In this document: one piece after another, positions 5,740-44,981 of the stretch | Numbering within the stretch: the stretch's first letter is position 1 | Layout of the letters: each line of letters opens with the position of its first letter | Source of the DNA: Candidatus Iainarchaeum sp. | GTDB lineage: Archaea > Iainarchaeota > Iainarchaeia > Iainarchaeales > Iainarchaeaceae | DNA: 64,000 nucleotides | Assembly: GCA_038895675.1 (NCBI GenBank) | Contig: JAWANB010000001.1 | Coordinates: 31,443 to 95,442, forward strand | Direction: 5' to 3' | Translations under genes and position numbers: made by a program | Notes under the pieces: generated by a model | What the model saw: the letters and a program-made list of their open reading frames with translations, nothing else | Databases searched by the model: none | What the model was told of the DNA's origin: nothing

Positions 5740-5769
5740 ATGACTACGTTGGTTAGTCATGACTTTTTG
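5740..5769 (+). terminator. Hairpin followed by an oligo-T run.
   Basis: ATGACTA cgttggt TAGTCAT is a 7-bp perfect stem with a 7-nt loop, followed by GACTTTTTG. It lies just 3' of the 5447..5713 frame on the plus strand. Confidence 0.4.
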
Positions 5770-5803
5770 AAAAAAATAGTATAACTATTAAAAATTAAAG
5801 AAA

Positions 5804-6754: not shown

Positions 6755-6889
6755 ACTAAAACAACAGATTTAGACAATTAAAGCTTTTCTAATGTCGATA
6801 AGATTTGGAATCGTTGACAATTTTTAGCATAATTAGAGTGGTTGCAAATAATGTTTATTGATAATATGCTTAAAAAGTTCTAATTTCTT

Positions 6890-11892: not shown

Positions 11893-14800
11893 TGACGCTC
11901 ACCAAGAAAAAATTATTTGAAACTCTTATAGGCCTAATATCATAAGTCTGTTCACTGTAAAAATTTTGTGGATTCTTAGTTTCGTTAGTCAAGGTAAAAT
12001 ACAATGATTGATTCAAGTTGTTAGATCCAAGGTCCACTTTCGGATTTTCGTTATCTGAAAAACCAGTATAACACTTGTTTATTACTTTTACAATTTCTTT
12101 TGACTCAGAAAAGTCAAGCAAAACTCTTTTCGTGTTAGTATTATTCACAACTCTTTCAAGGCTTAAGCACGAATTGTTTGTTGTTGCTATTGCAAGTACA
12201 AACCCCAAATAAAATTCTCTTTGATCTTTTTTTGCATTTAAAAATATTGGATGAACTCCCAATTGTTTACCTTGAGTAATGCTCACTACTTCGGTTGCGT
12301 TATTCGATAACGTGAAATTAGTTTTTGAAATACTTATATCGCTTTCAGCGGCTTTTGACAATTTTATTTCCACTTCAGACCCACAATTATCATTTTTTAT
12401 GGTTATATTAACAGGCGTAGCATTACAAGAAGTGCCATTACAATTTCTTGAATTAAGCTCTATTTCAGTATTGGAAGGACTTTGCTCATCAACTTTTATG
12501 CACTCTAAACTAGGTTGAGTTGGTAAAAGAACTTCTTGTTGTGTTACTCTTAATTCTTTTGTTGCGCTAACATAATTATCTTTAGATGCAACAACCTCAA
12601 AAGTAGTTGAAACAGCATAACTTTGTGGAAAAATTATAGTGAATTGTCCTTGGCTATTTGTTTGGCCACCAATATTTAGTTTTGTTTTACTTTCACCTTC
12701 TTTTTCGAATACTTCTATTAATGCACCTTGTAAGGCTCTATTAGCGTTGTCCTTTGTAGTGGCAATGACAATTTCATTAGGCTGTGGTTTTATTGTGTCT
12801 TTATCTAAAGTCAAAAACAACTGGTTTAATGCTGAAATACTAAACAACATTTCTGCTTCTTTTCCTCTTTCTTCAACATTTAAGCTCATTTTTAGTTTTA
12901 TTGAATTAACTGGTTTCAATGCTGTTAATGTTAAGTTTAAAGTAGCTGTTTGATTAGGCGAAAGTCTACCTATTGAACCACTATTTGGAGTTATTTGTAT
13001 TGGGTTAGGATTTATAGTAGGTTCAATAGTGAAAGACATTTGAAGGTTTTCAAAAATTTTTTTAGTAGAATTCAATACTTCTATTGCTATGTCATATTGT
13101 TCATTTTCTCTTAATTCAATAGTTCCTTCGAGTGCATCACGCCATTCTCTAATATGACCATTTTGAGAGGATTTTATTTTAGCACTAATCAAAAATCCAC
13201 AATTACTAGTGCAAAAAGAAGAATTCAAAAAAGTAGTCCACAAGTAAAGCGAATTCCTGTTAGGCTTGTATTCTTCGTTATCGCCTTTCTTGGTTTTAAT
13301 TCCATACCTTAATTCTACTTTAGTGTTATTTTCTTGAGTATCTTCAACTTCCTTTATGAAAACATTAGCAAACACTATGTAGACACCATCATCAGCCGAG
13401 TTCAAAGACAAAATAGCTTGTTTCGCATCATTGTCCGTTGGAGAACAATCCTCATAATTGTTTTGGGGATTAAAGCAAGATGAATAAATAACGTTTAGGT
13501 TTGGTGAATCTATTCTTTTTATAACCATTGTGGAATTGTTTGCATTCAATTGATTTTCTAAGCTCGTCCTAATAACTGCTTTTACGTCGCTTTTTTCCGC
13601 TCTATCTACTATAAGATTAAATTTGAAGACATAGTTTTTGTTATCTTCAAGTCTTGAAACTTCTCTTCCAGAAGTATCTAAAACTTTGTCAAGAAGTATT
13701 TCAGCAGGCTTGAATTGTTGATTTTCAGGAATTGCTTTTAAAACAATTTCTATTGATTGAGTCGCATTAGGCAAAATTCTTACACTAGGATGCCTAGTAG
13801 TATAATAACCTTGTTTGCTAACCACTATCATTGGACTTTTATCTGCTGAAAACTCTTTTTTTTGCGTCCTGCCTTGTGCATTAGTAGTTTCTCTGCCAAT
13901 TTCTCTATTGTTTTCAACAAAAGAAACTGAGGCACCTTGTACAGGCCTATTGCTTTCATCAACGACCTTCACTTCAATAAAGCCATTTGAAATTACCAAA
14001 ACTATTTCTAACTGAATTTCACTACCTTTAGACAAAGATTTTTCTCCTGAAAAATTAGAATGCTCTTTGCCATTAATTTCTTTCAATGCTTTTGCTTTAT
14101 AATTTCCAGGCGGCAAATTAATGAATTCTATTAAGCCGTCTTTGTCTGTAAGTCCATCAGCAATAGGAAAAGAAAAGGCAGAAGAATAAAGAAAAACAGA
14201 AGCGTTTTGAACTTTGTTGCCTCCGTATTCAGAAACTATTACTTTAGCTTTGCCTGAATTATTTGAAGTTACCTTGTCTAACTTTACTATAGTAGGTTGA
14301 TTATTATTTGCAAACTTCAAATTATTAATTACTTTTAGCACATAATTAGGATGCGAAGCTATTACTAAGTATGCTTTTTCTTCTAAGCTAAGATTCTGAA
14401 AGTTGACTATTCCATCATTGTTTGACCTCAAAGAAACACTCTGTCTATTATTGGCTATTAATTGTGCAAAAACATTACTAATAGGATTGTCATTGCTTGA
14501 ATCAACAAATTTGATTAAAATTTTTTTAGCACTGTCTGTTTTTTTCATTCTTATTTCAACAGTATAAGGTTGATTTGAAGAAAATTGAGCATCAGCAATA
14601 GTGAATTCGTCGCTATAAGCAATACCATAAGTACTTCCAGAAGGAGGTCTTGCTTCAATAACATAAGTGCCAGCACTTACGTTTTCTACTATTTTAGAAC
14701 CTGAGTTGTCCGTCGTCCCGCCTTGGAAAGCAATTACTTCTCCTTTCAAGAAAGTCAAGTAAACTCCACTAATTGGCTGAGAAGTATCATGGTCCTTTAC

Positions 14801-15601
14801 TAATACTCTTACATTAGCAAGCAAAATTTCTTTTCTCAAATTCACTATAACAGTCCCTTCAGTAATCGCTAAGTCTATTGTCTTTCTAGTCTCTTCAAAG
14901 CCGCTTGCCCTAACCAAAGCAACCAAAGTTCCGCAAGCAGATTGCACGCTTACCCTATGAATTGCTCCTTTAGAATTAATGTTTGCAGGAACATACTTTG
15001 AATCAGAACAAGAAAAACTAATCGAGACAGAAGTGTTAGAACTAATTAGGCCTTTTTCATCTCTTAACTCATAAACTATTTGCTTGAGTTTTGAACTAAC
15101 AGATTTTTCAAGAGTAATTTTGTATAACTTTCTTGGCTCTATTTTAATTTCTTCTTCAAATGGCTTAAAGCCACTTGCTTTGACAGAAACTTTTGCTTTG
15201 TCCCCAAACAATTTAATTTTTGCTTCACCAAAAGAGTTTGTAGTCATACTTTCCTTAGCACTACCAACTTCAACTATTATTTCAGCGTTTTGAATTGGAT
15301 TTTCAGAATTATCCATTACCACTATTTTTGCACTATTATCTCCTGACCAAAAAGAAAAAAGTGAGGCAATCAGAGACCAAATAGCTTTTGAAATAGGTTC
15401 AAGAGGCCCTCCTTGATTACCAAAAAAAAGCAAAAGAATGAAAAAAAAGAGCAGGAAAACAAAAATTAAAACTAATACAAAAGAAGGAAAAACTCGGTCT
15501 ATTGGGTCAATTATTCTATACACAGGTATTTTTTCGTTAATTTTATCAAGGAATTCGTAATAGCGATCCTCAAAAAAATAATAAAAATCCTTCAATTCCA
15601 T
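11876..15601 (-). CDS. Giant surface protein (1241 aa) with multiple CarboxypepD_reg/transthyretin-like (PEGA-like) beta-sandwich repeats and an N-terminal TM anchor.
   Basis: N-terminal TM (FVLVLIFVFLLFFFILLLFF). Repeated modules of the type AKIVVMDNSENPIQNAEIIVEVG...SFGEAKIKL, KVQNASVFLYSS...DGLTDKDGLIEFINLPPGNYKAKA and VKVVDESNRPVQGASVSFVENNREIGRETTNAQG. Sequons are abundant. Confidence 0.65.
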   Translation of the reverse strand: MELKDFYYFFEDRYYEFLDKINEKIPVYRIIDPIDRVFPSFVLVLIFVFLLFFFILLLFFGNQGGPLEPISKAIWSLIASLFSFWSGDNSAKIVVMDNSENPIQNAEIIVEVGSAKESMTTNSFGEAKIKLFGDKAKVSVKASGFKPFEEEIKIEPRKLYKITLEKSVSSKLKQIVYELRDEKGLISSNTSVSISFSCSDSKYVPANINSKGAIHRVSVQSACGTLVALVRASGFEETRKTIDLAITEGTVIVNLRKEILLANVRVLVKDHDTSQPISGVYLTFLKGEVIAFQGGTTDNSGSKIVENVSAGTYVIEARPPSGSTYGIAYSDEFTIADAQFSSNQPYTVEIRMKKTDSAKKILIKFVDSSNDNPISNVFAQLIANNRQSVSLRSNNDGIVNFQNLSLEEKAYLVIASHPNYVLKVINNLKFANNNQPTIVKLDKVTSNNSGKAKVIVSEYGGNKVQNASVFLYSSAFSFPIADGLTDKDGLIEFINLPPGNYKAKALKEINGKEHSNFSGEKSLSKGSEIQLEIVLVISNGFIEVKVVDESNRPVQGASVSFVENNREIGRETTNAQGRTQKKEFSADKSPMIVVSKQGYYTTRHPSVRILPNATQSIEIVLKAIPENQQFKPAEILLDKVLDTSGREVSRLEDNKNYVFKFNLIVDRAEKSDVKAVIRTSLENQLNANNSTMVIKRIDSPNLNVIYSSCFNPQNNYEDCSPTDNDAKQAILSLNSADDGVYIVFANVFIKEVEDTQENNTKVELRYGIKTKKGDNEEYKPNRNSLYLWTTFLNSSFCTSNCGFLISAKIKSSQNGHIREWRDALEGTIELRENEQYDIAIEVLNSTKKIFENLQMSFTIEPTINPNPIQITPNSGSIGRLSPNQTATLNLTLTALKPVNSIKLKMSLNVEERGKEAEMLFSISALNQLFLTLDKDTIKPQPNEIVIATTKDNANRALQGALIEVFEKEGESKTKLNIGGQTNSQGQFTIIFPQSYAVSTTFEVVASKDNYVSATKELRVTQQEVLLPTQPSLECIKVDEQSPSNTEIELNSRNCNGTSCNATPVNITIKNDNCGSEVEIKLSKAAESDISISKTNFTLSNNATEVVSITQGKQLGVHPIFLNAKKDQREFYLGFVLAIATTNNSCLSLERVVNNTNTKRVLLDFSESKEIVKVINKCYTGFSDNENPKVDLGSNNLNQSLYFTLTNETKNPQNFYSEQTYDIRPIRVSNNFFLVSVNDFKK

Positions 15602-15643: not shown

Positions 15644-16756
15644 TTAAATATTACTAACTTCCCAAACCAAAGACTCTAAAATTTTCTTTATACTCAACTT
15701 TCTGACAAATAAGCAAGAGTCTGACGCTCCACCAAACACTAACAACTCGTCACTCGAGCCTTGTAAAGCAGAAGTAGGAAAAACAACATTGCTTACAAAA
15801 CCAGTTTTTTCAAAAGCTTGTTTCGGAGTAAAAAGAGGCTTGTTTTCAGGAGACCTTGCTATTATTTTTTTCATTTTTTTGTCGAAGACAACAGCACCAG
15901 CACTATAAACCTTGTATTCTTCACCTTTTTTTCTAACTAATTTTACGCCATGATAAATTTCAAGCCAACCCTCTTTGATTCTTATTGGCACAGTTCCAGA
16001 CCCGATTCTTAAGCTATCCCAACCTTTTTTTCTAGGCCCCATTATGGGCCTTTCTTTTCCCCAAAAAATCAAGTCTTTAGAAAAAGAAATCCAAATACGG
16101 GGCTTGTCAAAAATCATAGTGCCCTCAGGCCTGTGCAAGGCAACGTAATAACCATTTATTTTTTCAGGCAAAATAACAACGTCCTTGTTTTGTTGCCTGA
16201 ATATTATGCCATGCCTTTTCCACGTCTCAAGGTTATGAGAAGTAGCAAGAGAAGTTGAAACACCAGAGCACATAGACACAGACACGTAAGTCATAACAAA
16301 TTTTTTTTCGTCTTTGAGAAAAGTAATGCGAGGATCTTCAACCCCAAAATCGCCATCATCTTTCAAACCAAAAAAATCTGGTTTTTGAGATATTGACAAA
16401 ACTTTTGTACCTGTTTCATCTAAAAGAATTTTTCTAAAATGAGAGATGGTAGGCAACCTTGCTTTTTCAGAATCAAAAATAAAATAGTTGTCTAAAGACT
16501 GAAATTTTCCTTTTTTTCTCGGCAAAGTTTCAACAATAATTTTCAATTCTTTATTTCCAACGAACCTTGGAGCCAAAAAATATTTTTCGCCATGCAAAGG
16601 CGTTTCGGCAATTCGTGCAAAAAGCAATATTTTGTTATCTTTTAGCCTAACCGCAGCAGGATTAAAAACACCCCTAACTCTAAAATTTTTTAACGTTGGA
16701 TTAATAGACGTAGGGCTTAAAATCAATGTAGATTTAGTCATGAAATGAAAACACAA
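15644..16756 (-). CDS. Glycoside hydrolase family 130 (beta-mannoside phosphorylase-like, DUF377).
   Basis: GVFNPAAV, FGVEDPRITFL, WLEIYHGVK and GFVSNVVFP are GH130 five-bladed beta-propeller signatures. Confidence 0.7.
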   Translation of the reverse strand: MCFHFMTKSTLILSPTSINPTLKNFRVRGVFNPAAVRLKDNKILLFARIAETPLHGEKYFLAPRFVGNKELKIIVETLPRKKGKFQSLDNYFIFDSEKARLPTISHFRKILLDETGTKVLSISQKPDFFGLKDDGDFGVEDPRITFLKDEKKFVMTYVSVSMCSGVSTSLATSHNLETWKRHGIIFRQQNKDVVILPEKINGYYVALHRPEGTMIFDKPRIWISFSKDLIFWGKERPIMGPRKKGWDSLRIGSGTVPIRIKEGWLEIYHGVKLVRKKGEEYKVYSAGAVVFDKKMKKIIARSPENKPLFTPKQAFEKTGFVSNVVFPTSALQGSSDELLVFGGASDSCLFVRKLSIKKILESLVWEVSNI

Positions 16757-16787
16757 AACCTAAATAAAAATCTAACGAAAATTTTTA

Positions 16788-18977
16788 TTACAAAATCTTA
16801 GAAATCATCATTCGAGCCAACAAATAAGTCACAGTTGCCTCTGCGCCTTCGTTAGCATTAACACCATTTTTTGTCAAACCGTCAAAACAACCGCCAGTAG
16901 CTTCATCATAAACCATGAGATTTGAAGTGTTTTTTCCTAAATACCAATCAAAAGAAGACCTTGCTTTAATTGCGTATTCTTTATTTCCAGTCTTCTGAAA
17001 AGCTCTAATATACGCGGTAGTCATTACACTAGCTTCTATTGGCTGCTGATCAAAATGAGACCTCTCTAAGTCTTTTACAAACCATTTTTCCTGTCCAATA
17101 GGAACTAACTTGCCACCTATAAACAAAGTCTTAGTCAAAAAGTTCAAAGATTCTTCAGCAACCTTTAAAGCTAAACCTGTTTTATCATAGTTATCTGCAA
17201 TAAATAAAGCCTCTGGAATGCTCCCATTTGCATAAGTCAAAGATTCCTCAAACCAGTTCCAGTCAACATTAGAAACTTCGTTGTACTTGCTAATCAAAGA
17301 CTCAACAAGTTTTTCTCTCATACCATTTCCAAACATGCCATTTACTTGTGACAATCCAATTAAAGAGTAAGCCTCAGCTCTAGTAGACTCTAACTCTAAC
17401 CCAAAATCAATAGTCTTTTCAAGCATATGCTTAGCCTTAAGCTTAAGTTCGTCAGGCAAATTAGAGTCAAGAACATGGCCTAAAGCCCAAATAGCTCTAC
17501 CTTGAGAATCTTCACTACCAACATCATCCAAAAATTCTCTATTTTCATCCACGAAATTATGAAACTTACCATCTTGCATTTGGCAATAATCTAAAAAATT
17601 TAAGAAAATATTTGAAAGCCTGAGCATCTTTTTTGAACCAAACTTAGAATAAGTGTCAGCAGCAACAACCAAAGCACGAGCATTGTCATCAAGAGTATAA
17701 CCACTATTTATGTCAGGCTCAGAATAATTACAAAATTGTATAATACCGAAGTCGTCAGTTAACTTGTAAAAATGCTTGAAATTCAATGGAGGAAGTCTTC
17801 CAAAAGAGCAATCCTCAATATTAGAAATTTCTTTCAACATGCCAAAATAAGAATTTGCAACATTAGGCCAAGTCATTTTTCTGCTAAACTCAAAAACGTT
17901 TTTTGAAAAATTTAAACTCATTTGCTGATTGTCCAAAAACTTACAAATAGCATTTGCAAAATAACCAGGTTTATTTTGCCTTACCACGATACCTCTATTT
18001 TCAGCCAACATTTCCTTATTATACCTAGTAAAAGAAGCAACTATTGGCTTTCCAGCACCCATTGCATAACTAACAGTCCCACTACAAATCTGATTTTTAT
18101 CTAATGCTGGGGCAACATAAACATCACAAAGTTCAAGAAATTCAATGATTTCATTCAAAGACAAAAACTTATCAATAAACTTTACTTTTCCAATAAGATT
18201 ATTTTCCTGAACCAAAGATTTCAAATAGTCTCTATATTCTTCTCCAAAAATCTTTCTTACTTTAGGATGAGTCTCGCCCAAAACCAAATAAATGGCATTT
18301 GGATGCTTTTCAAGTATTTTAGGCATGGCTAAAATTATGTTTTCAACCCCTTTACCTTTACTCAAAAGACCAAAAGTAAGCAAAACTTTTTTATCGGTCA
18401 AATCATACTTTCTTCTAAGTTTTTCCTTGTTTTGAAAAACCATAGAAGGGACTCCATGATAAATGACCTCTATTTTAGAGCCGTCTATTTTGTAGTTCTT
18501 TTCAAGCAACTCTTTAGCAGTGTTGGTCATGACAACTATTTTCTCACTATACTCAGATATGCCTCTCACAACTTGCTTCATTTCTGACTTTGGATTCTTA
18601 AGCACAGTGTGCATTGTAGTAATCATTTTTTTGTTTGTTAATTCCATGAATCTCAACAAATGGCTACCGAATTTGCCACCAAAAAGTCCGAATTCATGTT
18701 GAATATTAACTAAACCAATGTTTTGCATTTTGTTTATTTTCTTAGCTGCCTTTTCATAACTCTCCAATTCTTGTTCAACAAAACTACCAATGACTCTTTT
18801 ATCATAATCACGTAATATGTGAGAATCTTCGTTTATACAAAAAACCTTAGGAACTAAAATCATTCCAAATTTTTTTTGCAAAGCATCGCACAAATTTTTA
18901 GTAAAAGTAGCAATACCACATTCTCTTGGCGGATAACTTGAAACCATTAGTATTTTTTTAGGGTACTCACCCATCAA
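16788..18977 (-). CDS. Fusion protein: N-terminal GT4 glycosyltransferase plus a C-terminal six-hairpin (amylo-alpha-1,6-glucosidase/GDE_C-like) domain.
   Basis: N-terminal half has GT4 features (KILMVSSYPPRECGIATFTKNL...GETHPK...KFIDKFLSLNEIIEF...APALDKNQICSGTVSYAMGAGKPIV). C-terminal half (about 350 aa) has LDDNARALVVAAD...GRAIWALGHVL, like the WxRD-type (alpha/alpha)6 glycosidases. Confidence 0.6.
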   Translation of the reverse strand: MMGEYPKKILMVSSYPPRECGIATFTKNLCDALQKKFGMILVPKVFCINEDSHILRDYDKRVIGSFVEQELESYEKAAKKINKMQNIGLVNIQHEFGLFGGKFGSHLLRFMELTNKKMITTMHTVLKNPKSEMKQVVRGISEYSEKIVVMTNTAKELLEKNYKIDGSKIEVIYHGVPSMVFQNKEKLRRKYDLTDKKVLLTFGLLSKGKGVENIILAMPKILEKHPNAIYLVLGETHPKVRKIFGEEYRDYLKSLVQENNLIGKVKFIDKFLSLNEIIEFLELCDVYVAPALDKNQICSGTVSYAMGAGKPIVASFTRYNKEMLAENRGIVVRQNKPGYFANAICKFLDNQQMSLNFSKNVFEFSRKMTWPNVANSYFGMLKEISNIEDCSFGRLPPLNFKHFYKLTDDFGIIQFCNYSEPDINSGYTLDDNARALVVAADTYSKFGSKKMLRLSNIFLNFLDYCQMQDGKFHNFVDENREFLDDVGSEDSQGRAIWALGHVLDSNLPDELKLKAKHMLEKTIDFGLELESTRAEAYSLIGLSQVNGMFGNGMREKLVESLISKYNEVSNVDWNWFEESLTYANGSIPEALFIADNYDKTGLALKVAEESLNFLTKTLFIGGKLVPIGQEKWFVKDLERSHFDQQPIEASVMTTAYIRAFQKTGNKEYAIKARSSFDWYLGKNTSNLMVYDEATGGCFDGLTKNGVNANEGAEATVTYLLARMMISKIL

Positions 18978-19021
18978 TTCACCACAAAAAAAGACTATTA
19001 TATCTAAATTGCTGCAACTAA

Positions 19022-20605
19022 TTAATTAATGTTTCTTTTCCAAGCTTCACTATCCACTATGAAATTACAGTTTTTATGAAGTCTCAAAAAAGACGCAGGC
19101 ACTTTGTCAGAAATTTTTCCAAACAATGCTTTTTTCACAGCAAAAGATTTTTCTTTACCAGAAGCTAACAAAACAATTTTTTTAGCAGAAAGTATTGTTC
19201 CTATTCCCAAAGTAATAACTTTTCTTTTCTCTTTTCCAATAAAAGTAAAAGCAACTCTTGTCTTAGAATTTGCCTTTGAGCCAGGCTCGTTAAAAGCAAT
19301 ATGCCCATTTTTTCCTATGCCTAACAAAACAAAGTCTAAACCATGAGTTCTAACAAACTTTTCAACACTCTTAGCCTGACTTTTAGCCATGCTTAAATTA
19401 CCGCTGAAAAAAAATTCTTTCCGAAATTTTTTTGTGCCAACAAGTTGGTTCTTAATGAAAAACTTAAAAGAATCTTTTTCACTTTTTAAATCTAAATACT
19501 CGTCAAGTTGTATTATAGTAGATTTTGAAAAGTCAAGTTTAGAATCCTTAACCATATTATAAGCCAAGATTGGCGTGTTGCCAGCAGCAAAACAAAAAAC
19601 AGAATCTGGTTTTAAGGCTAATTGTAAAGCTATTTCTTCAAAAGCCACTTTTGACAGTTCTTGATAATCCTTACACAAAATTATATTAATTTTTTCAGTT
19701 TTTTTTAAAAACTTCAAAACTTTTCTTTCACTAATTTTTACTAAAGATATTCTTTGAGAAGCAACAAAATTACCTATTTTTAAACAAACTTTTTCATTGA
19801 AATCGTTTATAAGCCCATAAACAAAACCAGCATTAAAGAAGTCCCCAGCTCCTGTAGTGTTTATTGCCTTTACTTTATTAGCTTTTTCAAAAATTTTTTT
19901 TGAATTAGTAAAAAAAGCAGCACCTTTGCTACCTCTTTTCAAAATTACACGTTTAGCATCATTCTTAAGCAAAAATTTTATGCCTTGATGCAAGCTTTTA
20001 TTACCTGTAATTTTTTCGAATTCACGTTCGTCTAAAAAAAAGTAATCTACTAAACCAAGAAAAGATACGTCCCAAGTATTATACTCATCATAAGTAGCAT
20101 CGAAAGCAATTATTACACCTCTTTGTTTAAAATTTTTTAACAATTTTTTGAAATCTTTATGAAGACCTTTTAAATGATAATAACCGCCAAAAAAAATCCA
20201 GTCGCCTTTTTTTATTTTTTTACCGATTTTTTGCCAAACCATTTTTGAAGTCAGTTTTAACATACAGCCTTTGCTTGAAACTATTGCCCTTTCGCCATCA
20301 TTTCTAACAAAAATGTTTGATATGCCATTTTTTTCATTGAACACAAAAAAATTCTTTTTTATTTTTTTGTCGCTTAATTCTTTATCTATAAATTCTTTGA
20401 AAACGTCTTTTCCAATTGCACTAACCAATTCGACTTCTATGCCAAGAGAAGCCATGGCTACAGCAAAATTTGCTGCATTACCACCTATTGAAACTGAAAA
20501 ACTATTTGCTTTATGCTCTTCTCCAAAAACTAAATTTTTTGAATAATAAGTGAAAAAATCAACATTAGTATCTCCCACAACAAAAATTTTTTTCTTATGA
20601 CTCAT
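19022..20605 (-). CDS. Fusion protein: PfkB/ribokinase-family sugar kinase (N-terminal) plus glucosamine-6-phosphate deaminase/isomerase NagB-family domain (C-terminal).
   Basis: N-terminal: IFVVGDTNVDFF...GGNAANFAVAMASLG...TTGAGDFFNAGFVYGL (PfkB anion hole). C-terminal: FCFAAGNTPILAY...LDEYLDL...DFVLLGIGKNGHIAFNEPGS (NagB/6-phosphogluconolactonase fold). Confidence 0.7.
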   Translation of the reverse strand: MSHKKKIFVVGDTNVDFFTYYSKNLVFGEEHKANSFSVSIGGNAANFAVAMASLGIEVELVSAIGKDVFKEFIDKELSDKKIKKNFFVFNEKNGISNIFVRNDGERAIVSSKGCMLKLTSKMVWQKIGKKIKKGDWIFFGGYYHLKGLHKDFKKLLKNFKQRGVIIAFDATYDEYNTWDVSFLGLVDYFFLDEREFEKITGNKSLHQGIKFLLKNDAKRVILKRGSKGAAFFTNSKKIFEKANKVKAINTTGAGDFFNAGFVYGLINDFNEKVCLKIGNFVASQRISLVKISERKVLKFLKKTEKINIILCKDYQELSKVAFEEIALQLALKPDSVFCFAAGNTPILAYNMVKDSKLDFSKSTIIQLDEYLDLKSEKDSFKFFIKNQLVGTKKFRKEFFFSGNLSMAKSQAKSVEKFVRTHGLDFVLLGIGKNGHIAFNEPGSKANSKTRVAFTFIGKEKRKVITLGIGTILSAKKIVLLASGKEKSFAVKKALFGKISDKVPASFLRLHKNCNFIVDSEAWKRNIN

Positions 20606-20656
20606 GCTAAATAGTAGAGTGTATAATATTTAATTTTTGTCATTCAATATGACACT

Positions 20657-21235
20657 ATGGTAAAAGCCATTAGTATTGTTGCCCATCCTGATGATGAAAC
20701 TATTTGGATGGGTGGAAAAATTTTAAGAGAAAAAAATTGGAGTTGGGTAATATTGTCTCTATGTAGAAAGGACGATCCTGACAGAGCACCTAAGTTTTTT
20801 AGAGTATGCAAAGCTCTTAATGCCAAAGGATTTATTTCAGATTTGGATGACGAAAATCCAGAAAAAGATTTAAGTTTAGATGAAGTGGTAAAAAGAATAG
20901 AGCCAATAGTTCATGACAAAAAATTTGATTTTGTTTTTACTCATGGCAAAAATGGCGAGTATGGACATAAAAGGCACATAGAAGTTCACAATGCAGTTAT
21001 AGAAATGTATAAAAGTGGATTACTAAAATTAAAAAATTTGCTTTGCTTTAACTATAAAAGGAACGAAAATCCTTTTATGTGCCTTCCTAACGAAGATGCA
21101 CAAGAAAAGCTTGAACTTACTGATAGTGAATTTCGAGAAAAACAAAGGCTGGTTCATGAAGTTTATGGTTTTAGGAAAGATATTTTTGAGTACTTGAGTT
21201 GTTCTAAAACAGAAACTTTTCAGAAGGTAGTGTGA
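20657..21235 (+). CDS. PIG-L/LmbE-family N-acetylglucosaminyl deacetylase.
   Basis: AISIVAHPDDETIWMGG...VFTHGKNGEYGHKRH matches the PIG-L zinc-deacetylase motifs. The stop overlaps the next gene's start (ATGA). Confidence 0.75.
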   Translation: MVKAISIVAHPDDETIWMGGKILREKNWSWVILSLCRKDDPDRAPKFFRVCKALNAKGFISDLDDENPEKDLSLDEVVKRIEPIVHDKKFDFVFTHGKNGEYGHKRHIEVHNAVIEMYKSGLLKLKNLLCFNYKRNENPFMCLPNEDAQEKLELTDSEFREKQRLVHEVYGFRKDIFEYLSCSKTETFQKVV

Positions 21236-22389
21236 TGTCTAACTCGAAATTTTCGGCTGCAGTATTATACCCTTATCCTCTTGAAATGGACGGCGTAAGT
21301 CTCCAAGGTTATTATCTTGCAAAAGGTTTAGCACACCATGGTTATAAAGTATATCAAGCTAATAGGCGAGCTCGCTTTGAAAAAGAATTTATTTACAAAC
21401 ATTATAAACCGAATTTTGCTATAGGCATAGGTTTTTGGGGAGACTTACCGCAATTGTCAAGGTATACACAAAAATATGATATAACCTTGATACCTTGGCT
21501 TAATGCAGATGGATGGGTCGCGAATTATCATGAAACAATAGAATCATTACCTCTAGTTTTTACTACAAGCAATTGGGTAAAAGAAACTTATATTAGAGAT
21601 GGTTTATCAGGAAAAAACCTTGTTCCAATGCCAATAGGTATTGACACGGAAGAAATGAAACCAATACCTAAAGACGACCCAAGAGTAATTTCAATGAGAA
21701 AACTATTAGGAGTAAAAGAAGACGAAATAATGATATTGACGGCAGGCGGAGACGTTACAAGCAAAGGCTTTCAAGAAGTATTAAAAGCATTAGGAAAAAT
21801 AAATGGCAAGTACCCAAAATGGCGCTATGTAGGTAAAAGTTGGGAAAGTTATTATCCAACTTACCATTATCGTGATGAATTAGAAATAATAAAAAAATTT
21901 GGTTTTGAAAACAAAATAGAGTACATTGATGGTAATGTTTCTAGAGAAACATTCAACGTTCTTTTAAGCGCAGCAGATATTTATGCGGCACCAAGCAGGA
22001 TAGAAGGCTTTGGCATGATACAAGTAGAGGCAATGGCTTGCGGTATCCCAGTACTATCAATTGATGCAGGCGGTATAAAAGACACTATAATCCATAATAA
22101 AACAGGTTTTCTTGCTAAAGTTTCAGAGACAATAGACTTGGATCAAGAGTGGGTTTACCCTGAAATGGGTTTTGAAAAAAAGCAAATAATCAAGTTTGAC
22201 AAACCAAAAACATTTGCTTATAGAGCAGACGTAGATGAATTAGCAGAATATCTTCTAAAATTAATGGAAAACCCAGATTTAAGAAAAAAAATGGGTGAAA
22301 ATGGTAGAAAACACGCTGTAGAAAACTTTGATTACAAAGTAACTTCCTTAAAAATGGCAAAAATAATAGAAAAAACTTTTAACCTATAA
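21232..22389 (+). CDS. GT4-family glycosyltransferase (PIG-A/BshA-like retaining GT).
   Basis: C-terminal GT4 signature YAAPSRIEGFGMIQVEAMACGIPVLSIDAGGIKDTIIHNKTGFLA. Translationally coupled to the PIG-L gene. Confidence 0.75.
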   Translation: MMSNSKFSAAVLYPYPLEMDGVSLQGYYLAKGLAHHGYKVYQANRRARFEKEFIYKHYKPNFAIGIGFWGDLPQLSRYTQKYDITLIPWLNADGWVANYHETIESLPLVFTTSNWVKETYIRDGLSGKNLVPMPIGIDTEEMKPIPKDDPRVISMRKLLGVKEDEIMILTAGGDVTSKGFQEVLKALGKINGKYPKWRYVGKSWESYYPTYHYRDELEIIKKFGFENKIEYIDGNVSRETFNVLLSAADIYAAPSRIEGFGMIQVEAMACGIPVLSIDAGGIKDTIIHNKTGFLAKVSETIDLDQEWVYPEMGFEKKQIIKFDKPKTFAYRADVDELAEYLLKLMENPDLRKKMGENGRKHAVENFDYKVTSLKMAKIIEKTFNL

Positions 22390-22391
22390 AT

Positions 22392-23573
22392 TTACAAAAA
22401 TTCATATATTCCGACACTAGGCTTACTTGTCTTTGAAAGTCTTTTAACATACCTTGTTTCTTGTTTTTCTTTTTCAAACCTTACTTTTTTTCCAACCAAA
22501 ATTTTTTTACCACAAACATACAACGCGTTATTTTTTCCTAAAGCACAATAAAACTTGCCAATTTTAGGCTTGTATTTTACCATTTTTGAATTTTTTAAAA
22601 GCGCAATAACATTTTTTGCTACTACCTTTGATTGGTCAACAGCATTTTGAGCAGTTTTCTGAATGCTTTCATTTTCCACTATACAAGCACAATCACCTAA
22701 ACCAAAAATAAAAGGATAAGTAGTACATTGCATAAAACTATTTACTAATAAGCCACCTCCAGGAGCGCCTCTTTCACCAAGCATTCCAGAGTAAGGAAGC
22801 GAGCTCTCTATTATTAGATCGTGAGTCCTTATGCCTCCAGCCCAAATTAGCGTATCACAACTAAACTCACTTCCGTCTCTACTAATAACTTTCTTATTAA
22901 AAATTTTCTTTGTATAAAAATTGCATACTACATCAATACTTGCTTTACTTAAATAATCAAGGACTAAAGAAGAAGCCTTGTCTGGCAGATTTGGCAAAAT
23001 TCTATTTGGACCATGCAAAATAGTTACTCTAAAGTTTTTTCTATTAAATCCGTTTTTTGCACATACAATATCAAGATGATCTTTCAAAGTAGTTGCTAAT
23101 TCTATTCCAGTTAGACCTGCACCACAAACAACAAAGTCATGTGGCTCATTTTTTTCAACACAATTTGAAATTCTCTCAAAAAGCTTTTCAGCGTCTTCTT
23201 TACTTTTCAACGCAAAAGCCTTTTCTTTTCCTTCTATGCCTGAATAATTGGTCAAAGCTCCAATTGCTAAAATAAGTACATCAAAACTAATTTTTTCAGA
23301 ATTTTTGGTTATAACAAACTTTTCTTTTGGCAAAATTTTTTTTACGGAATCATGGTAATAAACTATCTTGTACTTTTTTAATAAAGAAGGAATTAATAGA
23401 CAAGTGTCAGCCTCTGAAAGTTCTCCTGCCGCAACTTCATAAAGCAAAGGCGAAAAAGTAAAGCAGTCATCATCACTAACTAAAATTATTTCATTTTTTG
23501 ACAAATATTGCCTAAGTCTTAGAGCTGTTTCTATACCAGCAAAGCCTCCTCCTAAAATCAATATTTTTTGCAT
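22392..23573 (-). CDS. FAD-dependent pyridine-nucleotide oxidoreductase, type-II NADH dehydrogenase (NDH-2)-like.
   Basis: Two dinucleotide-binding motifs (ILILGGGFAGIE and VVCGAGLTGIELA) and a C-terminal GLGDCA. About 393 aa. Confidence 0.65.
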   Translation of the reverse strand: MQKILILGGGFAGIETALRLRQYLSKNEIILVSDDDCFTFSPLLYEVAAGELSEADTCLLIPSLLKKYKIVYYHDSVKKILPKEKFVITKNSEKISFDVLILAIGALTNYSGIEGKEKAFALKSKEDAEKLFERISNCVEKNEPHDFVVCGAGLTGIELATTLKDHLDIVCAKNGFNRKNFRVTILHGPNRILPNLPDKASSLVLDYLSKASIDVVCNFYTKKIFNKKVISRDGSEFSCDTLIWAGGIRTHDLIIESSLPYSGMLGERGAPGGGLLVNSFMQCTTYPFIFGLGDCACIVENESIQKTAQNAVDQSKVVAKNVIALLKNSKMVKYKPKIGKFYCALGKNNALYVCGKKILVGKKVRFEKEKQETRYVKRLSKTSKPSVGIYEFL

Positions 23574-23634
23574 TATACTATAAACGAGTCAAGTTATTTT
23601 TATAGTTTTAGTAAAAAAATTCAAAGCTATAAAT

Positions 23635-23901
23635 TCAAGGCAAAACAAAAAGGTTATCATCATTTTTTCCGTCAAGCAAACCAATTCTAACTCCAGCGTC
23701 TATCCAAGCATGAGCATAACTATAAGCAGCTAATGCAGTTAATTTCAAACCCTTTTTTTCAAAATATTGCGCATCTTCATAATAAGCTTTAGCCATTTCC
23801 AAAAGCTTTTTCCCATATTCTTTTCTTATCTCTACTTTTTCAAGCGCTAATTTAGTTAATGACCTGTACTTTGCAAGTTTTTCTTCTAAATTTTCTTTCA
23901 T
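23635..23901 (-). CDS. Small helical hypothetical protein.
   Basis: 88 aa, AYSYAHAWIDAGVRIGLL. Overlaps the upstream diphthine synthase gene by 4 nt. Confidence 0.4.
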   Translation of the reverse strand: MKENLEEKLAKYRSLTKLALEKVEIRKEYGKKLLEMAKAYYEDAQYFEKKGLKLTALAAYSYAHAWIDAGVRIGLLDGKNDDNLFVLP

Positions 23902-24668
23902 TCAAGATCAGCCAATGTTTTTAAACCTTCAATTTCTTTTTCATTCAAATTGCCACAAACGATAAGAGATTGAGGAAAAGAAACAAAATCAAAATTCTTT
24001 ACTTTTTCAATAGGACCAGCAAAAATTTGTTCTCTATCACTGCCAAGACCTGCAAGACCAACTATAATACTTTCAGCAATAACATTTTTTTCTCGCCTTT
24101 CCTCAATTAACTCAAGCAAAGAAAGAGCTTGCCTAATACTCATTAACCTTGACTCTTCTTTCCTAATGTCTAACAAGCAAAAAGTATGCAAGCCTAAAGA
24201 CTTGTTTTTTATTATAACGTCATAAAAGCTTTCAGGCTCATAGTCTGGTTCATGAAAAACTATTGTCGTCGTCCTACCAAACTTGTATCTATCCAAGCCT
24301 GTAAAAGCCACGAATTCAAAGACACTAATCCCTGGAATAATTTTAACAGGAATACTTAATTTTTTACACTCAATCGCTAATTGAATATGAGTAGTGGCAT
24401 TCAAAGGGCTTCCTGGAACTGCCAAAGCCACATTGTAATTAAAAGGCAACAAAAATTTTTCTAAAAAATTTTCTTCTATTTCTTTCCTCTCTAAAGCAAT
24501 TATTTCTTTTCCAACTTCAGAACTCAATTTTGAAATATAACCTTCTGGCAATTGAGAAGTAAAACTATCTAAGTAAATTTTTTCACAACTTTTCAACGCA
24601 GAAATAGATTCTTTTGTAATATGTTTTGGAGCCAAACCAATGCCTACCAAGTAAAGCATTTTTATCAA
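23898..24668 (-). CDS. dphB: Diphthine synthase (diphthamide biosynthesis methyltransferase, tetrapyrrole-methylase fold).
   Basis: MLYLVGIGLAPKHITKESISALKSCEKIYLDSFTS...VALAVPGSPLNATTH...IPGISVFE matches Dph5-type class III MTases. Confidence 0.7.
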   Translation of the reverse strand: MIKMLYLVGIGLAPKHITKESISALKSCEKIYLDSFTSQLPEGYISKLSSEVGKEIIALERKEIEENFLEKFLLPFNYNVALAVPGSPLNATTHIQLAIECKKLSIPVKIIPGISVFEFVAFTGLDRYKFGRTTTIVFHEPDYEPESFYDVIIKNKSLGLHTFCLLDIRKEESRLMSIRQALSLLELIEERREKNVIAESIIVGLAGLGSDREQIFAGPIEKVKNFDFVSFPQSLIVCGNLNEKEIEGLKTLADLE

Positions 24669-24691
24669 TAAAATAATCGTCTAAAAAACTT

Positions 24692-25513
24692 TTAAATGCA
24701 AGTGCCAACTCCAATAGTCAAAAGATTCCTTAAGCCAGGAGCAAATCCTAAAACAATAATCCAAAATTTGACAAAATTCCTAAAATTTTCGTCCTCTATT
24801 TCTCTGTCAGCATAATAGACAATTAAACTAGCGATCAAAATTTTTACTAAAATAAATAGCCAAGGATTTATTGAAATAACAAAAGCACTAACTGGATGTT
24901 GTTCAGTACAATTCAAAGAAGTAGCTACCAAAGTTCCAAAACCATCCAAGGCTTGGCCAAAAATAACGAATAAATTCATTTTATCTGAAAGAATTTTTTT
25001 TAAAAGAAAAGAAAATGACAATACTTTTAGGATAAACAAAATGAAAATCATAGCAACTATTATCAATGCAACTTGATTCCAAGCAACAAAATTAATTATT
25101 TCAAAAACCAAAATAGGCAATGTTATTGCAGAACCCACTATCGGAACAAATTTTTTCCAATTCTTGCCAGACAAAACTATAGTGGCAAAAAGAATACCAC
25201 CTGTTAAAAACCAAATTCCAGGAGTAAAAGTATAAAAATTTGGATCCAAAGGATTGCAAGTCTTATAGAAAAAACCCATGTCATTTAGAACCCTTAAAGA
25301 AGATCCAAAAACTATGAACGGAAAAACAGCTAAAACAAAACCAAAATCAAATTTTATTTGTTTTTTTGCCAAAAACTTGTAAAGATAAAAAATCACCACA
25401 AATAAAATTAGAATATAAAAAATAGTGTTTACAAAATTGTAACCTCTTTCTGTTTTTCCCAAAATAGGGTCACAAAAATATTTACCAGTTAAGTCAAAAA
25501 TGATTTCAAACAT
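24692..25513 (-). CDS. Polytopic membrane protein, hypothetical.
   Basis: 273 aa with about 7 predicted hydrophobic helices. No soluble domain. Confidence 0.45.
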   Translation of the reverse strand: MFEIIFDLTGKYFCDPILGKTERGYNFVNTIFYILILFVVIFYLYKFLAKKQIKFDFGFVLAVFPFIVFGSSLRVLNDMGFFYKTCNPLDPNFYTFTPGIWFLTGGILFATIVLSGKNWKKFVPIVGSAITLPILVFEIINFVAWNQVALIIVAMIFILFILKVLSFSFLLKKILSDKMNLFVIFGQALDGFGTLVATSLNCTEQHPVSAFVISINPWLFILVKILIASLIVYYADREIEDENFRNFVKFWIIVLGFAPGLRNLLTIGVGTCI

Positions 25514-25548
25514 CTTTTTTATAATGAGACATTACTATTTAATATTTT

Positions 25549-26586
25549 ATGGAAGCGTTAGGAATAGAAATAGAAAAAAGTGAAGCAGAAAAAGTCAAAC
25601 AAATTTTATCTAAAAAAAGCCTATTAAATAATAGCCTTTTGCCTATAAGAAAAGGCAACAAAGTTATTTTTCCGATAAAAGAAAAGCCTATAGAAAATTT
25701 AGGAAAAATAGTCAAGACAAAGTTTAGTATGCGTGAAAAAAAACCTAAGAATATAAAAGAAGTTTTGTCAAAAAGCCTCTCAAAAGAAGAAATTGCGTTA
25801 TTGCCTTCATCATTTGACCTTTTAGGAGACTGCGCAATACTTGAATTAAATGAAAGAATAAAACACAAAGCTTTAGAAATAGCAGAAGCACTAATGCTTG
25901 TCAACAAGCAAGTAAAAAGTGTTTTTTTGAAAACAGGAGCACACCATGGAATTTTTAGAAACGAACCAGTTGTTTTTATAGCTGGAAAAAGAACAAACAA
26001 AGCCACTTACATTGAACATGGTTGCAAGTTTAAAATAACTCTTGGCCAAGTATTTTTCTCACCAAGACTTTCCTCTGAAAGAAAAAGAATTTCAAATCTG
26101 ATAAAAGAAGGAGAAAAAATAGCATGTCTTTTTGCAGGCGTTGGGCCATTTCCAATAGTTTTTGCAAAACACTCAAAAATGAGCATGGCAATAGCAATAG
26201 AACTTAATCCAATAGCTTATAATGACATGTTAGAAAATATTACTATTAACAAGCTACAAAACAAAATAATTCCTTTGTTAGGAGACGTAAAAGAGTTTGC
26301 TAAAATGCCAGAATACAAAGAAAAATTTGATAGAGTCATAATGCCATTGCCAAAAGGCGGTGAAAACTTTTTGGAAGACGCAATAAACTTTCTAAAAAAA
26401 GAAGGAATGATTCACTATTACCAATTTTCTGACTCAAAAAGTCCTTTTGAAGATCCGCACAAACAAATAGAAAATGCATGCAAAGATAAAAATGCGACTT
26501 TTGAAATAATCTTCGAAAAAAAAGTCAGAGATTATGCACCAAGCATAGTGCAAGTAGTAATAGATTTTTTTGTAAGGAAGAGATAA
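25549..26586 (+). CDS. trm5: tRNA (guanine37-N1)-methyltransferase Trm5/Taw2-like (Met-10+ class I SAM MTase).
   Basis: FSPRLSSERKRI, CLFAGVGPFPIVFA (SAM motif I) and ELNPIAYNDMLENITINKL...DRVIMPLP match the Trm5/TYW2 family. Confidence 0.7.
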   Translation: MEALGIEIEKSEAEKVKQILSKKSLLNNSLLPIRKGNKVIFPIKEKPIENLGKIVKTKFSMREKKPKNIKEVLSKSLSKEEIALLPSSFDLLGDCAILELNERIKHKALEIAEALMLVNKQVKSVFLKTGAHHGIFRNEPVVFIAGKRTNKATYIEHGCKFKITLGQVFFSPRLSSERKRISNLIKEGEKIACLFAGVGPFPIVFAKHSKMSMAIAIELNPIAYNDMLENITINKLQNKIIPLLGDVKEFAKMPEYKEKFDRVIMPLPKGGENFLEDAINFLKKEGMIHYYQFSDSKSPFEDPHKQIENACKDKNATFEIIFEKKVRDYAPSIVQVVIDFFVRKR

Positions 26587-26587
26587 A

Positions 26588-26953
26588 ATGAAAAAAAAAC
26601 TAAGCAAAGAACAAAGGCATGTGTGCTTTGAAAAAGGTACAGAAAAGCCTTTTACAGGAAAATTTCTTTACAACAAAAGAAAAGGGATTTATGTTTGCGT
26701 AGTTTGCGGCAACAAACTTTTTTCATCAGAAACAAAATTTGAGTCAGGAACAGGATGGCCAAGTTTTTTCGATGTAATAAACAAGAACGCAGTGTCTTTT
26801 GAAGCTGATTATAGTAATTTTATGTACAGAATAGAAGTAAAGTGCGCAAAATGTAAAGCACACTTGGGACACGTTTTTGATGATGGGCCAGAACCAACAA
26901 GAAAAAGGTATTGCATTAACTCAATTTCTTTAGATTTTATCCCAAAAAAGTAA
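26588..26953 (+). CDS. msrB: Peptide methionine sulfoxide reductase B.
   Basis: YVCVVCGNKLFSSETKFESGTGWPSF...CAKCKAHLGHVFDDGP gives two CxxC pairs plus the catalytic region of SelR/MsrB. Confidence 0.9.
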   Translation: MKKKLSKEQRHVCFEKGTEKPFTGKFLYNKRKGIYVCVVCGNKLFSSETKFESGTGWPSFFDVINKNAVSFEADYSNFMYRIEVKCAKCKAHLGHVFDDGPEPTRKRYCINSISLDFIPKK

Positions 26954-26962
26954 ATTAATAAG

Positions 26963-29416: not shown

Positions 29417-29417
29417 T

Positions 29418-29897
29418 TTATTCCACTCCAAATTCTTTAAAATAATTTTCCATAATTTGAATAAACTTTTCCTCAATTATAGGACAACCTGGCACTTCAG
29501 CATCAACTTTAATGTACTTTCCAATAGGCTCTACAGAAGGCAAATGACTAAATCTTTCTAAAATAGGCTTTATTTCTTCTAACCTTTCCTTGTCAAAAAA
29601 GTTTCTATTATTGCTTGGGCTTCCGTTTATTGCACAACTTCCAATAGCAACAACTTTTTTTGCCTTATCCCTTATTTCTTGCAAAAGCTTCAATTCTTTG
29701 CTATTAGAAATAGCTCCTTCTACAAAAGCAACGTCAAGGTCATTCATAGTGTTGTTGGCTTTTAAAATTCTTGCATAAACAAAATCAACCTTGTCTTTCC
29801 AATCCTTTAGCTTGTAATTCAATATTTCAACAAAAGTAATTACACAACCTTCATCACCAGTAAAAGAAAAAATTCCAACACGCAATTTCTTGCCCAT
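29418..29897 (-). CDS. [NiFe]-hydrogenase small subunit, truncated group-3 delta-like, with the proximal-cluster domain only.
   Basis: 159 aa. KLRVGIFSFTGDEGCVI, DVAFVEGAISNS...KKVVAIGSCAINGS and KYIKVDAEVPGCPI align to the N-terminal flavodoxin-like half of group-3 small subunits. The C-terminal medial/distal cluster domain is absent. The first Cys of the CxGC motif is Asp. Confidence 0.7.
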   Translation of the reverse strand: MGKKLRVGIFSFTGDEGCVITFVEILNYKLKDWKDKVDFVYARILKANNTMNDLDVAFVEGAISNSKELKLLQEIRDKAKKVVAIGSCAINGSPSNNRNFFDKERLEEIKPILERFSHLPSVEPIGKYIKVDAEVPGCPIIEEKFIQIMENYFKEFGVE

Positions 29898-32163: not shown

Positions 32164-32245
32164 GATACGATAATATTACTACAAAACTAAAAATCTTGTG
32201 CAAAAGCATTATTCTTTATTAATTCTTTTTCTTATGTGTTTTCTA

Positions 32246-33798: not shown

Positions 33799-33801
33799 GT
33801 T

Positions 33802-44855: not shown

Positions 44856-44981
44856 TTAATCACCTAAAAAATTAAATGACATTTATTTAAAAATCTCACA
44901 CTATTTAAATGCAATTTTTGCAACTTAAACATTTTTACAATTAAGTTTAAAATTGCCTTGCTATTTTATGGTTTTGGTCTT

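Follow-up and report, generated by a model that had tools for sequence, protein, structure and literature searches.

A PfkB kinase fused to a NagB-type deaminase in a conserved DPANN glycan module, with a possible role in amino-sugar entry to glycolysis

Which reactions are joined when a PfkB-family sugar kinase and a glucosamine-6-phosphate deaminase (NagB) share one polypeptide? The question is raised by a gene at 19022..20605, on the minus strand of a 64,000-nucleotide stretch of contig JAWANB010000001.1 from Candidatus Iainarchaeum sp.; the whole stretch is called the window here. In the list of open reading frames the gene starts with ATG and encodes 527 residues, with the kinase at the N terminus and the deaminase at the C terminus. 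Catalytic residues are intact in both domains, the C-terminal domain is NagB and not 6-phosphogluconolactonase (6PGL), and the gene is linked to genes for a PIG-L family de-N-acetylase, GT4 glycosyltransferases and a GH100-like hydrolase. The reading that we favour, with a probability of roughly 0.42, is a bifunctional enzyme in a series that runs from a deacetylase through a hexosamine kinase and a deaminase to fructose-6-phosphate, joining an amino-sugar glycoside module to glycolysis.

The original prediction, made from the letters of the DNA, described a PfkB kinase fused to NagB in a single 527-residue polypeptide, and this description is borne out. One open reading frame carries both Pfam domains above their gathering scores (PfkB at residues 5-286 and Glucosamine_iso at residues 330-508), and an AlphaFold2 (AF2) model built on 36 fused homologues has a pLDDT of 92.8 and a pTM of 0.80. 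The two domains are connected by a linker at residues 287-306 (19688..19747, minus strand, as are all segments of the fusion gene cited below), which includes a helix at residues 293-303 in the model (pLDDT 81-95). Superposition of the model with Foldseek found no PDB chain spanning both halves. A deposited protein from a Candidatus Diapherotrites metagenome-assembled genome, P0001, is identical to the fusion and is named generically as a “PfkB family carbohydrate kinase.” Across assemblies from NCBI, JGI, ENA and Logan, 41 clusters (90% identity) encode both domains in one frame; the fusion is not an assembly artefact. A word-indexed search supplied 38 of the clusters, 34-59% identical to the window protein, and the other 3 came from HMMER, run exhaustively over 1.84 billion representatives; at the 50% level, that pass holds only ∼7 representatives of full-length fusions. 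Where an organism is named, the carriers are Candidatus Diapherotrites or “archaeon.” A literature search found no description of the PfkB-NagB architecture or of its gene module. Rare and lineage-restricted, the fusion joins two well-known families in an architecture that is uncharacterised and lies in databases under generic names, and the expectation that it departs from textbook architectures held when other genomes were searched.

The kinase domain, residues 5-286 (19748..20593), matches Pfam PF00294 with an E value of 4e-46 (158.1 bits against a cut-off of 25.8). Its subfamily is labelled K1 here, and the PfkB kinase of the Pacearchaeota-type loci described below is labelled K2. Standalone kinases of the K1 subfamily are also present in databases, at 38-48% identity. 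The K1 half of the AF2 model superposes on ribokinases with TM scores of 0.83-0.89 in Foldseek and has the ribokinase-like alpha/beta fold with a beta-sheet lid, at 20-26% identity to solved ribokinase-family structures. K1 has the full motif set of the PfkB family, namely a GG dipeptide, an NxxE-type motif and GxGD with its catalytic Asp. The GG dipeptide of the sugar-binding and lid hinge lies in GGNAAN (residues 41-46; 20468..20485), with G41, G42, N43 and N46 invariant in the 36 fused proteins. The NxxE motif for Mg and phosphate is represented by DERE (residues 192-195; 20021..20032), in which E195 is invariant and position 192, Asp in the window protein, is Asn in at least 90% of relatives. 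TGAGD (residues 251-255; 19841..19855) provides the anion hole and the catalytic Asp255. It aligns with AAGD/Asp255 of ribokinase, and T251, A253, G254 and D255 are invariant in the 36 fused proteins. The GAGD anion hole, which was to be looked for in the kinase domain as a check on the original prediction, is present and invariant across the family.

The substrate of K1 is not readable from its sequence, as assignment by homology fails. Every NCBIfam kinase equivalog scores far below its cut-off; the best is ribokinase, yet K1 falls short of ribokinase proper (TIGR02152, 135 against 299.65 bits; PRK11142, 87 against 341 bits). The models for PfkB-type phosphofructokinase (PFK) are also missed (TIGR03828, 90 against 292 bits; TIGR03168, 83 against 216 bits), the fructokinase model scores 75 bits against the 135 bits of ribokinase, and the ketohexokinase match in Pfam is weak. 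A comparison of specificity residues, also proposed at the outset, was informative in part. The positions that we take to be the ribose ligands of ribokinase, Lys43 and Glu143, are replaced in K1 by N43 and, in the Glu143 region, by a K1-specific GGYYH insertion (residues 140-144; 20174..20188), identified by alignment to ribokinases and K2. G140 and H144 of this insertion are invariant among the 36 fused proteins. The comparison separates K1 from ribokinase and leads to no substrate, with the equivalogs below cut-off and generic ribokinases as structural neighbours. In the alignment, the pocket frame of K1 comprises D12, N14, E30, N43, the GGYYH insertion, D169, D173 and K223, whereas that of K2 comprises S12, V14, a lid Lys, G/A43, D102, N166 and K/R225. 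The frame of K1 is acidic and polar (D12, E30, N43, D169 and D173) and that of K2 has extra basic residues, a contrast that may be a weak hint in favour of a glucosamine kinase.

The C-terminal domain, residues 307-522 (19040..19687), is a glucosamine-6-phosphate deaminase domain of the monomeric Bacillus subtilis NagB type by NCBIfam, PDB and TM comparisons. It matches Pfam PF01182 (Glucosamine_iso) at residues 330-508 with an E value of 1.5e-17 (64.7 bits against a cut-off of 27), and it superposes on the monomeric NagB structures 2ri0 and 2bkv with TM scores of 0.83-0.87. A 6PGL identity for this half had been named as the alternative to check, and it is ruled out. NCBIfam models for NagB score 152 and 134 bits compared with 53 bits for 6PGL, and in a PDB search the B. 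subtilis NagB 2bkv is matched at 1.4e-35 compared with 2.5e-9 for the best 6PGL. Residue invariance in this domain was scored over the 36 fused proteins, with the window protein included. The phosphate-binding loop AAGNTP (residues 340-345; 19571..19588) aligns with ATGGTP of B. subtilis, and its G342 and T344 are invariant. LDEY (residues 367-370; 19496..19507) contains the catalytic Asp368, with D368 and Y370 invariant; GHIAFNEP (residues 434-441; 19283..19306) contains His435 and Glu440, with H435, N439, E440 and P441 invariant; and SGKEK (residues 482-486; 19148..19162) contains the invariant phosphate-binding Lys486. We take D368, H435, E440 and K486 to be equivalent to Asp72, His143, Glu148 and Lys208 of Escherichia coli NagB, and the lid Arg of the family to be equivalent to its Arg172.

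The active-site lid is shortened. Residues 447-467 (19205..19267) lack the TxxANxR(Y/F)F motif and the Arg172 equivalent in the alignment, and the region is ∼12-13 residues short relative to B. subtilis NagB, exactly at the motif TxxANARYF. The spacer from NEP to the (V/A)xTxG motif (VITLG) spans 21 residues in the window protein; 33 of the 37 fused proteins have 31-33, and reference NagBs have 34-35. Among the relatives, a shortened lid is limited to P0002, the closest relative, whose spacer has 16 residues, and to P0024, P0008 and P0015 with 21-29. The curated NCBIfam cut-offs for NagB are not reached (TIGR00502, 133.7 against 236.9 bits; NF001684, a NagB subfamily, 152.5 against 326 bits). 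Because of the shortened lid, the variability of the Arg and these scores, the domain is best filed, as far as alignment and models can tell, as NagB-like with an eroded lid and not as a certified NagB equivalog.

The fusion belongs to a conserved DPANN module of a GH100/GDE_C-like hydrolase, a first GT4 transferase (GT4a), PIG-L, the PfkB kinase, NagB, a second GT4 transferase (GT4b) and a GH130 protein, which occupies 15644..28081 in the window. Fused homologues at only 39-44% identity (L001, L003 and L005) are surrounded by the same set, and the module is also found around standalone K1 kinases (L008 and L015). With the GH100-like protein as probe, 80 further metagenome loci were fetched and mapped by tblastn. 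Eleven loci, the window among them, are of type K1. They run GH100-like, GT4a and PIG-L, then K1, which is divergent from the PIG-L/GT4a pair in every case. Eight of the 11 have NagB fused in frame, the contig ends inside K1 in 1 and K1 stands alone in 2. No aldolase, triosephosphate isomerase (TIM), GAPDH, PGK or ROK gene was detected in the K1 loci, nor in the window even at a relaxed threshold.

Type K2 includes 24 loci, and its named matches are Pacearchaeota or Nanobdellota. Here the module lies inside an upper-glycolysis supercluster (L009, L106, L107, L119, L123, L128, L163, L168 and others) with the order GAPDH-(Pyr_redox)-PGK-NagB-(GH130)-GH100-like, divergent GT4a-PIG-L, then K2-class I aldolase-TIM-PMI-like cupin-ROK. 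The aldolase gene follows K2 in 20 of the 24 loci, and 3 of the other 4 contigs end just past K2. NagB is a separate gene in this type, usually 0-12 nucleotides after PGK, and is fused to the GH100-like hydrolase in L009, a locus that also encodes archaeal ribosomal proteins S24e and S27e and Spt4. In a further group of loci, NagB directly follows PIG-L on the same strand. No mapped locus has both K1 and K2, and no Diapherotrites-labelled K2 occurs among the best 120 matches to K2 homologues, which are Pacearchaeota, Nanobdellota or unnamed. From its operon, K2 is the obvious PFK candidate. K1 and K2 are 25-31% identical, whereas GT4a, PIG-L and GH100-like proteins are 42-53% and NagB 34-44% identical between the same locus pairs. 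In a tree of 135 PfkB sequences, the K1 and K2 clades are united by a branch of negligible length, with a K1-K2 distance of 0.87 compared with 0.85 from K1 to ribokinases. The PfkB kinase beside aldolase and TIM in L009, which is a K2, was considered as an unfused K1 orthologue and ruled out at 28% identity and without support in the tree.

How might these genes work together? The PIG-L neighbour would strip the acetyl group from N-acetylglucosamine (GlcNAc) or a GlcNAc-glycoside, and free glucosamine would be released, probably through the GH100-like hydrolase. The N-terminal PfkB domain would then convert glucosamine and ATP to glucosamine-6-phosphate, which the fused NagB domain would isomerise and deaminate to fructose-6-phosphate and ammonium. 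What we infer is the substrate of the kinase, the direction in which NagB works, the order of the steps and any channelling between the domains. Since the deacetylase, kinase and deaminase together suffice, such a route would be complete without NagA. A module-specific free-sugar kinase is the most economical reading of K1, because K1 and K2 have diverged in sequence, aldolase and TIM are missing, K1 is retained with the module and the linkage to PIG-L is tight; a glucosamine kinase supplying the fused deaminase is the best candidate. No other kinase is kept with the module where all neighbouring glycolytic genes, including the free-sugar kinase ROK, are gone. Moreover, NagB is tied to glucosamine-producing steps in related loci, because there it is fused to the GH100-like hydrolase or lies next after PIG-L.

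Several observations weigh against this reading. No glucosamine kinase of the PfkB family is known to us, and none turned up in a literature search. The specificity of K1 is not assignable by homology, with every kinase equivalog far below cut-off, and K1 holds the exact genomic slot of the PFK candidate K2 in Pacearchaeota-type loci. About 12 lid residues are lost from the window NagB domain, the phosphate-binding lid Arg has gone with them, and this Arg is variable even among the full-length lids of the fused family. Standalone K1 kinases accompany the module in L008 and L015 with no NagB nearby. With two GT4 genes, the module may also have an anabolic side, and the GH130 protein resembles beta-1,2-mannoside phosphorylases and not a Man-GlcNAc enzyme. 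Finally, the genome evidence is the 64-kb window, and another PFK, a hexokinase, GlmS or NagA may lie beyond it.

The original prediction offered two schemes, in which the kinase precedes the deaminase or the deaminase precedes PFK. Both are possible and the context favours the former, which stops short of proof; a third, a fructokinase with NagB in reverse, has to be added. In the second scheme, NagB would make fructose-6-phosphate from glucosamine-6-phosphate phosphorylated elsewhere, and the PfkB domain would continue to fructose-1,6-bisphosphate. These reactions are consecutive, and a PfkB-type ATP-PFK is known from Aeropyrum pernix. K1 shares with K2 its position divergent from PIG-L/GT4a, the two kinases never occur in one locus, and K2, followed by class I aldolase in those 20 of 24 loci and usually by TIM, is the sole PFK candidate in its glycolysis supercluster. 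The shared position is nonetheless at odds with the proteins themselves, as K1 and K2 have diverged far more than the other module proteins and K1 is no nearer to K2 than to ribokinase. Most pocket-frame positions differ, and K1 is without the extra basic residues of K2. In addition, K1 never adjoins aldolase or TIM, standalone K1 stays with PIG-L, GT4 and GH100-like genes where NagB and glycolytic genes are missing, and the other PfkB kinase of the window (32893..33798) could be a nucleoside kinase or the PFK. Taken together, these data make a PFK role for K1 unlikely.

The third scheme is anabolic and we regard it as quite improbable. The PfkB domain would be a fructokinase or hexokinase that makes fructose-6-phosphate, with fructose coming for example from an invertase-like GH100, and NagB would combine fructose-6-phosphate with ammonium to yield glucosamine-6-phosphate and then UDP-GlcNAc for GT4, whose product PIG-L deacetylates. 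Pairs of GT4 and PIG-L have a biosynthetic role in the mycothiol, bacillithiol and glycosylphosphatidylinositol (GPI) pathways, and the same pairing occurs here, although the NCBIfam and PDB similarity is weak. The only PDB sequence matches of the GH100-like protein are invertases, the top PDB match of GT4a is a sucrose-phosphate synthase, and K1 has N-terminal GDxxxD and GER motifs, which we take to be fructokinase-like, along with its weak ketohexokinase match. The NagB equilibrium, however, favours deamination, and K1 scores higher as a ribokinase than as a fructokinase. Furthermore, NagB in the K2 loci shares its orientation and close spacing with the two glycoside-cleaving enzymes and PGK and not with GT4a and PIG-L. 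It is also doubtful that the kinase acts on the aglycone or on another sugar (mannose, inositol, galactosamine or mannosamine), or that a lid-less NagB is weakened, regulatory or specific for another sugar phosphate. The lid deletion and loss of the Arg172 equivalent in the window protein and P0002 point in this direction, as do NagB and kinase NCBIfam scores that are all under curated cut-offs and mannose-related enzymes in the module (GH130, and the PMI-like cupin of K2 loci). Against this, all 36 fused proteins keep the equivalents of Asp72, His143, Glu148 and Lys208, together with the GxTP loop, unchanged, and the domain models confidently as NagB, with much weaker similarity to 6PGL. The observation behind the original prediction was right, and its interpretation was right in outline and falls between its own alternatives; the gene module and the shortened NagB lid had no part in it.

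The preferred series of deacetylation, phosphorylation and deamination has a precedent in archaea. The chitin/GlcNAc route of Thermococcus kodakarensis uses the PIG-L-type deacetylase Dac, an ADP-dependent glucosamine kinase and the deaminase GlmD. The proposed logic is the same, leading to fructose-6-phosphate with no NagA, and a PIG-L deacetylase adjoins the fusion. Unlike in Thermococcus, the kinase of the fusion is an ATP-type PfkB and not an ADP-dependent glucokinase, the deaminase is NagB-type and not the GlmS-like GlmD, the two are fused, and the cluster has GT4 transferases with no chitinase or GlmA. No solved PIG-L protein is detectably similar in sequence to the window PIG-L.

For the deaminase, the nearest characterised relatives are the monomeric, non-allosteric NagBs of B. 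subtilis and Streptococcus mutans (2bkv/2bkx and 2ri0/2ri1), which have the same fold (TM 0.83-0.87) at 32-35% identity. The GxTP loop, the catalytic Asp, the His/Glu pair and the phosphate-binding Lys are conserved in the fusion, which also has Asn at the position of E. coli Asp141, as B. subtilis NagB does. It differs from these enzymes in lying behind a kinase, in a lid ∼12-13 residues short with no phosphate-binding Arg and in scores below the NCBIfam cut-offs. For the kinase, ribokinase and PfkB structures (E. coli RbsK 1rkd, Brucella ribokinase 9zpu and E. coli YdjH 3in1) share the fold with TM scores up to 0.89, the GG, NxxE-type and GAGD motifs and equivalents of Asn14 and Asp16. K1 is nevertheless a distinct subfamily, 20-26% identical to them, with Lys43 and Glu143 replaced and invariant residues of its own. 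The PfkB fold is likewise common to K1, the A. pernix PFK and K2, the last of which takes the locus position of K1; unlike K2, K1 never has aldolase or TIM next to it, differs at most pocket-frame positions and is only 25-31% identical.

Other NagB fusions are informative by analogy. Bacterial NagB-ROK fusions (∼530 residues, on Clostridia-like contigs; L011-L013, P0059 and P0062) also combine a kinase with NagB in one polypeptide in an amino-sugar catabolic context. Their kinase is ROK, NagB is N-terminal, a NagA-like amidohydrolase is adjacent and the fused steps are not consecutive. These fusions were ruled out as the same system, as they are bacterial, next to a NagA-like gene and opposite in domain order. 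They do show that fusion of a free-sugar kinase to NagB is a solution that recurs. Bacteroidota proteins of 633 residues (NF002557, “glucosamine-6-phosphate deaminase-like”) have a NagB half 34-37% identical to that of the window and differ in that its partner is PIG-L, not a kinase, and in being bacterial. More generally, NagB is fused to varied partners in public data, with many proteins of 440-1220 residues (P0135-P0256) having NagB at one end.

The other module genes in the window surround the fusion on both sides. An AT-rich spacer of 51 bp (20606..20656), presumably a bidirectional promoter region, separates the fusion gene from the divergent PIG-L gene (20657..21235, plus strand). This encodes a 192-residue de-N-acetylase with an AHPDDE motif (Pfam PF02585, E 3.5e-11) and has no PDB sequence match; its orthologues are 42-64% identical and adjacent in nearly all module loci. 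GT4a (21232..22389, plus strand; 385 residues; Pfam Glycos_transf_1) overlaps the PIG-L stop by 4 bp and is 47-67% identical across loci. Its PDB neighbours, the sucrose-phosphate synthase Tll1590 at the top and PimB', MshA and BshA, are all weak and equally near. Directly downstream of the fusion, GT4b (16788..18977, minus strand; 729 residues; orthologues 36-64% identical) joins a GT4 domain, matched by Pfam in its N-terminal half, to a 340-residue domain of unknown family. This C-terminal half (16791..17807) has no Pfam match and contains 49 invariant columns across 17 orthologues (e.g. DQQP, TGGCxDG and NxNQGAE). One orthologue has weak GH88/C5-epimerase-like matches that suggest an (alpha/alpha)6 fold.

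Two putative glycoside-cleaving enzymes complete the module. The GH130 beta-mannoside phosphorylase-like gene (15644..16756, minus strand; 370 residues; Pfam GH130, E 7e-44) has the beta-1,2-mannobiose phosphorylase Lin0857 as closest PDB entry (5e-44), and its matches 5b0p, 9erg and 9fj8 are beta-1,2-mannobiose or oligomannan phosphorylases and a ‘mannoside synthase.’ It hints at beta-1,2-mannoside metabolism beside the amino-sugar branch. A role as the Man-GlcNAc (N-glycan core) phosphorylase that supplies GlcNAc is unsupported, as its nearest relatives are beta-1,2-mannoside phosphorylases. The GH100/GDE_C/MGH1-like (alpha/alpha)6 glycoside hydrolase (26963..28081, minus strand; 372 residues) was assigned from the Pfam families on the identical gene in L014. 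Its orthologues are 45-62% identical in >80 loci, and its invertase matches in the PDB, from Anabaena, are weak.

Beyond the module, the window has 30-34% GC and archaeal-type metabolism, including PFOR, a NiFe hydrogenase, a purine biosynthesis cluster, SHMT and two tRNAs. The second, standalone PfkB kinase (32893..33798, plus strand, within 32198..35049) lies after adenylate kinase and faces S-adenosylhomocysteine hydrolase in convergent orientation, a pairing that recurs in L001 and L003. It is probably an adenosine or nucleoside kinase and is a possible alternative PFK candidate. Directly downstream of GH130, the region 6890..15601 (minus strand) encodes a 1241-residue protein with Ig-like/CarboxypepD_reg repeats beside two large open reading frames (576 and 1091 residues) with no Pfam matches. 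The module has comparable giant Ig-repeat proteins on its flanks in L001, L003 and L006; these are possibly glycosylated surface proteins. The GH100-like gene adjoins methionine sulfoxide reductase B (SelR; 26588..26953), as it does in L001 and L003, and lies beside NiFe-hydrogenase large and small subunit genes (28121..29897). A Pyr_redox_2 oxidoreductase gene (22392..23573) abuts GT4a; in K2-type loci Pyr_redox lies between GAPDH and PGK, so that a link to redox genes recurs. The purine biosynthesis cluster (43884..51741) is near complete, and this DPANN genome is comparatively self-sufficient. Outside the window, locus L015 (JAFCBY010000005.1, labelled Candidatus Falkowbacteria of the candidate phyla radiation, CPR) has GH100-like, GT4a and PIG-L genes with a divergent standalone K1 at 5769..9870. 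The encoded proteins are 39-61% identical to those of the window and adjoin a TrbC/VirB2-type pilin gene, reflecting either DPANN-CPR gene transfer or mis-binning.

What source of amino sugar would the module serve? Scavenging from host glycans, as originally proposed, is plausible given that PIG-L and glycoside-cleaving enzymes adjoin the fusion. With two GT4 genes and a GH130 that resembles beta-1,2-mannoside phosphorylases and not the Man-GlcNAc enzyme, however, it is equally possible that the cell makes and re-uses a glycoside of its own. A bolder proposal, which we consider unlikely as it stands, is that the fusion is the catabolic end of an undescribed DPANN pathway that builds (GT4a and PIG-L) and re-mobilises (GH100-like, K1 and NagB) a glucosamine glycoside or polymer wired into glycolysis, with K1 as the first PfkB-family glucosamine kinase. 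It is comparably speculative that this glycoside or polymer serves as a carbon and nitrogen reserve or a compatible solute. A more extreme version would be an amino-sugar analogue of the sucrose cycle, with an SPS-like GT4, an invertase-like GH100 and a PfkB kinase.

DPANN genomes are tiny, and sugar acquisition and processing are central to whether these organisms depend on a host. A fusion locked into a conserved six-gene glycan module, which in sister lineages sits inside a glycolysis cluster, points to a dedicated, uncharacterised entry of amino sugars into central metabolism. If the kinase does act on glucosamine, the PfkB family would gain a new specificity, and archaea a second way to use GlcNAc. 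As one recombinant protein, the fusion offers a simple biochemical handle on the whole module and a convenient point at which to begin experiments. Of greater interest than the fusion is the DPANN glycan module itself, which is conserved and physically integrated with the genes of glycolysis.

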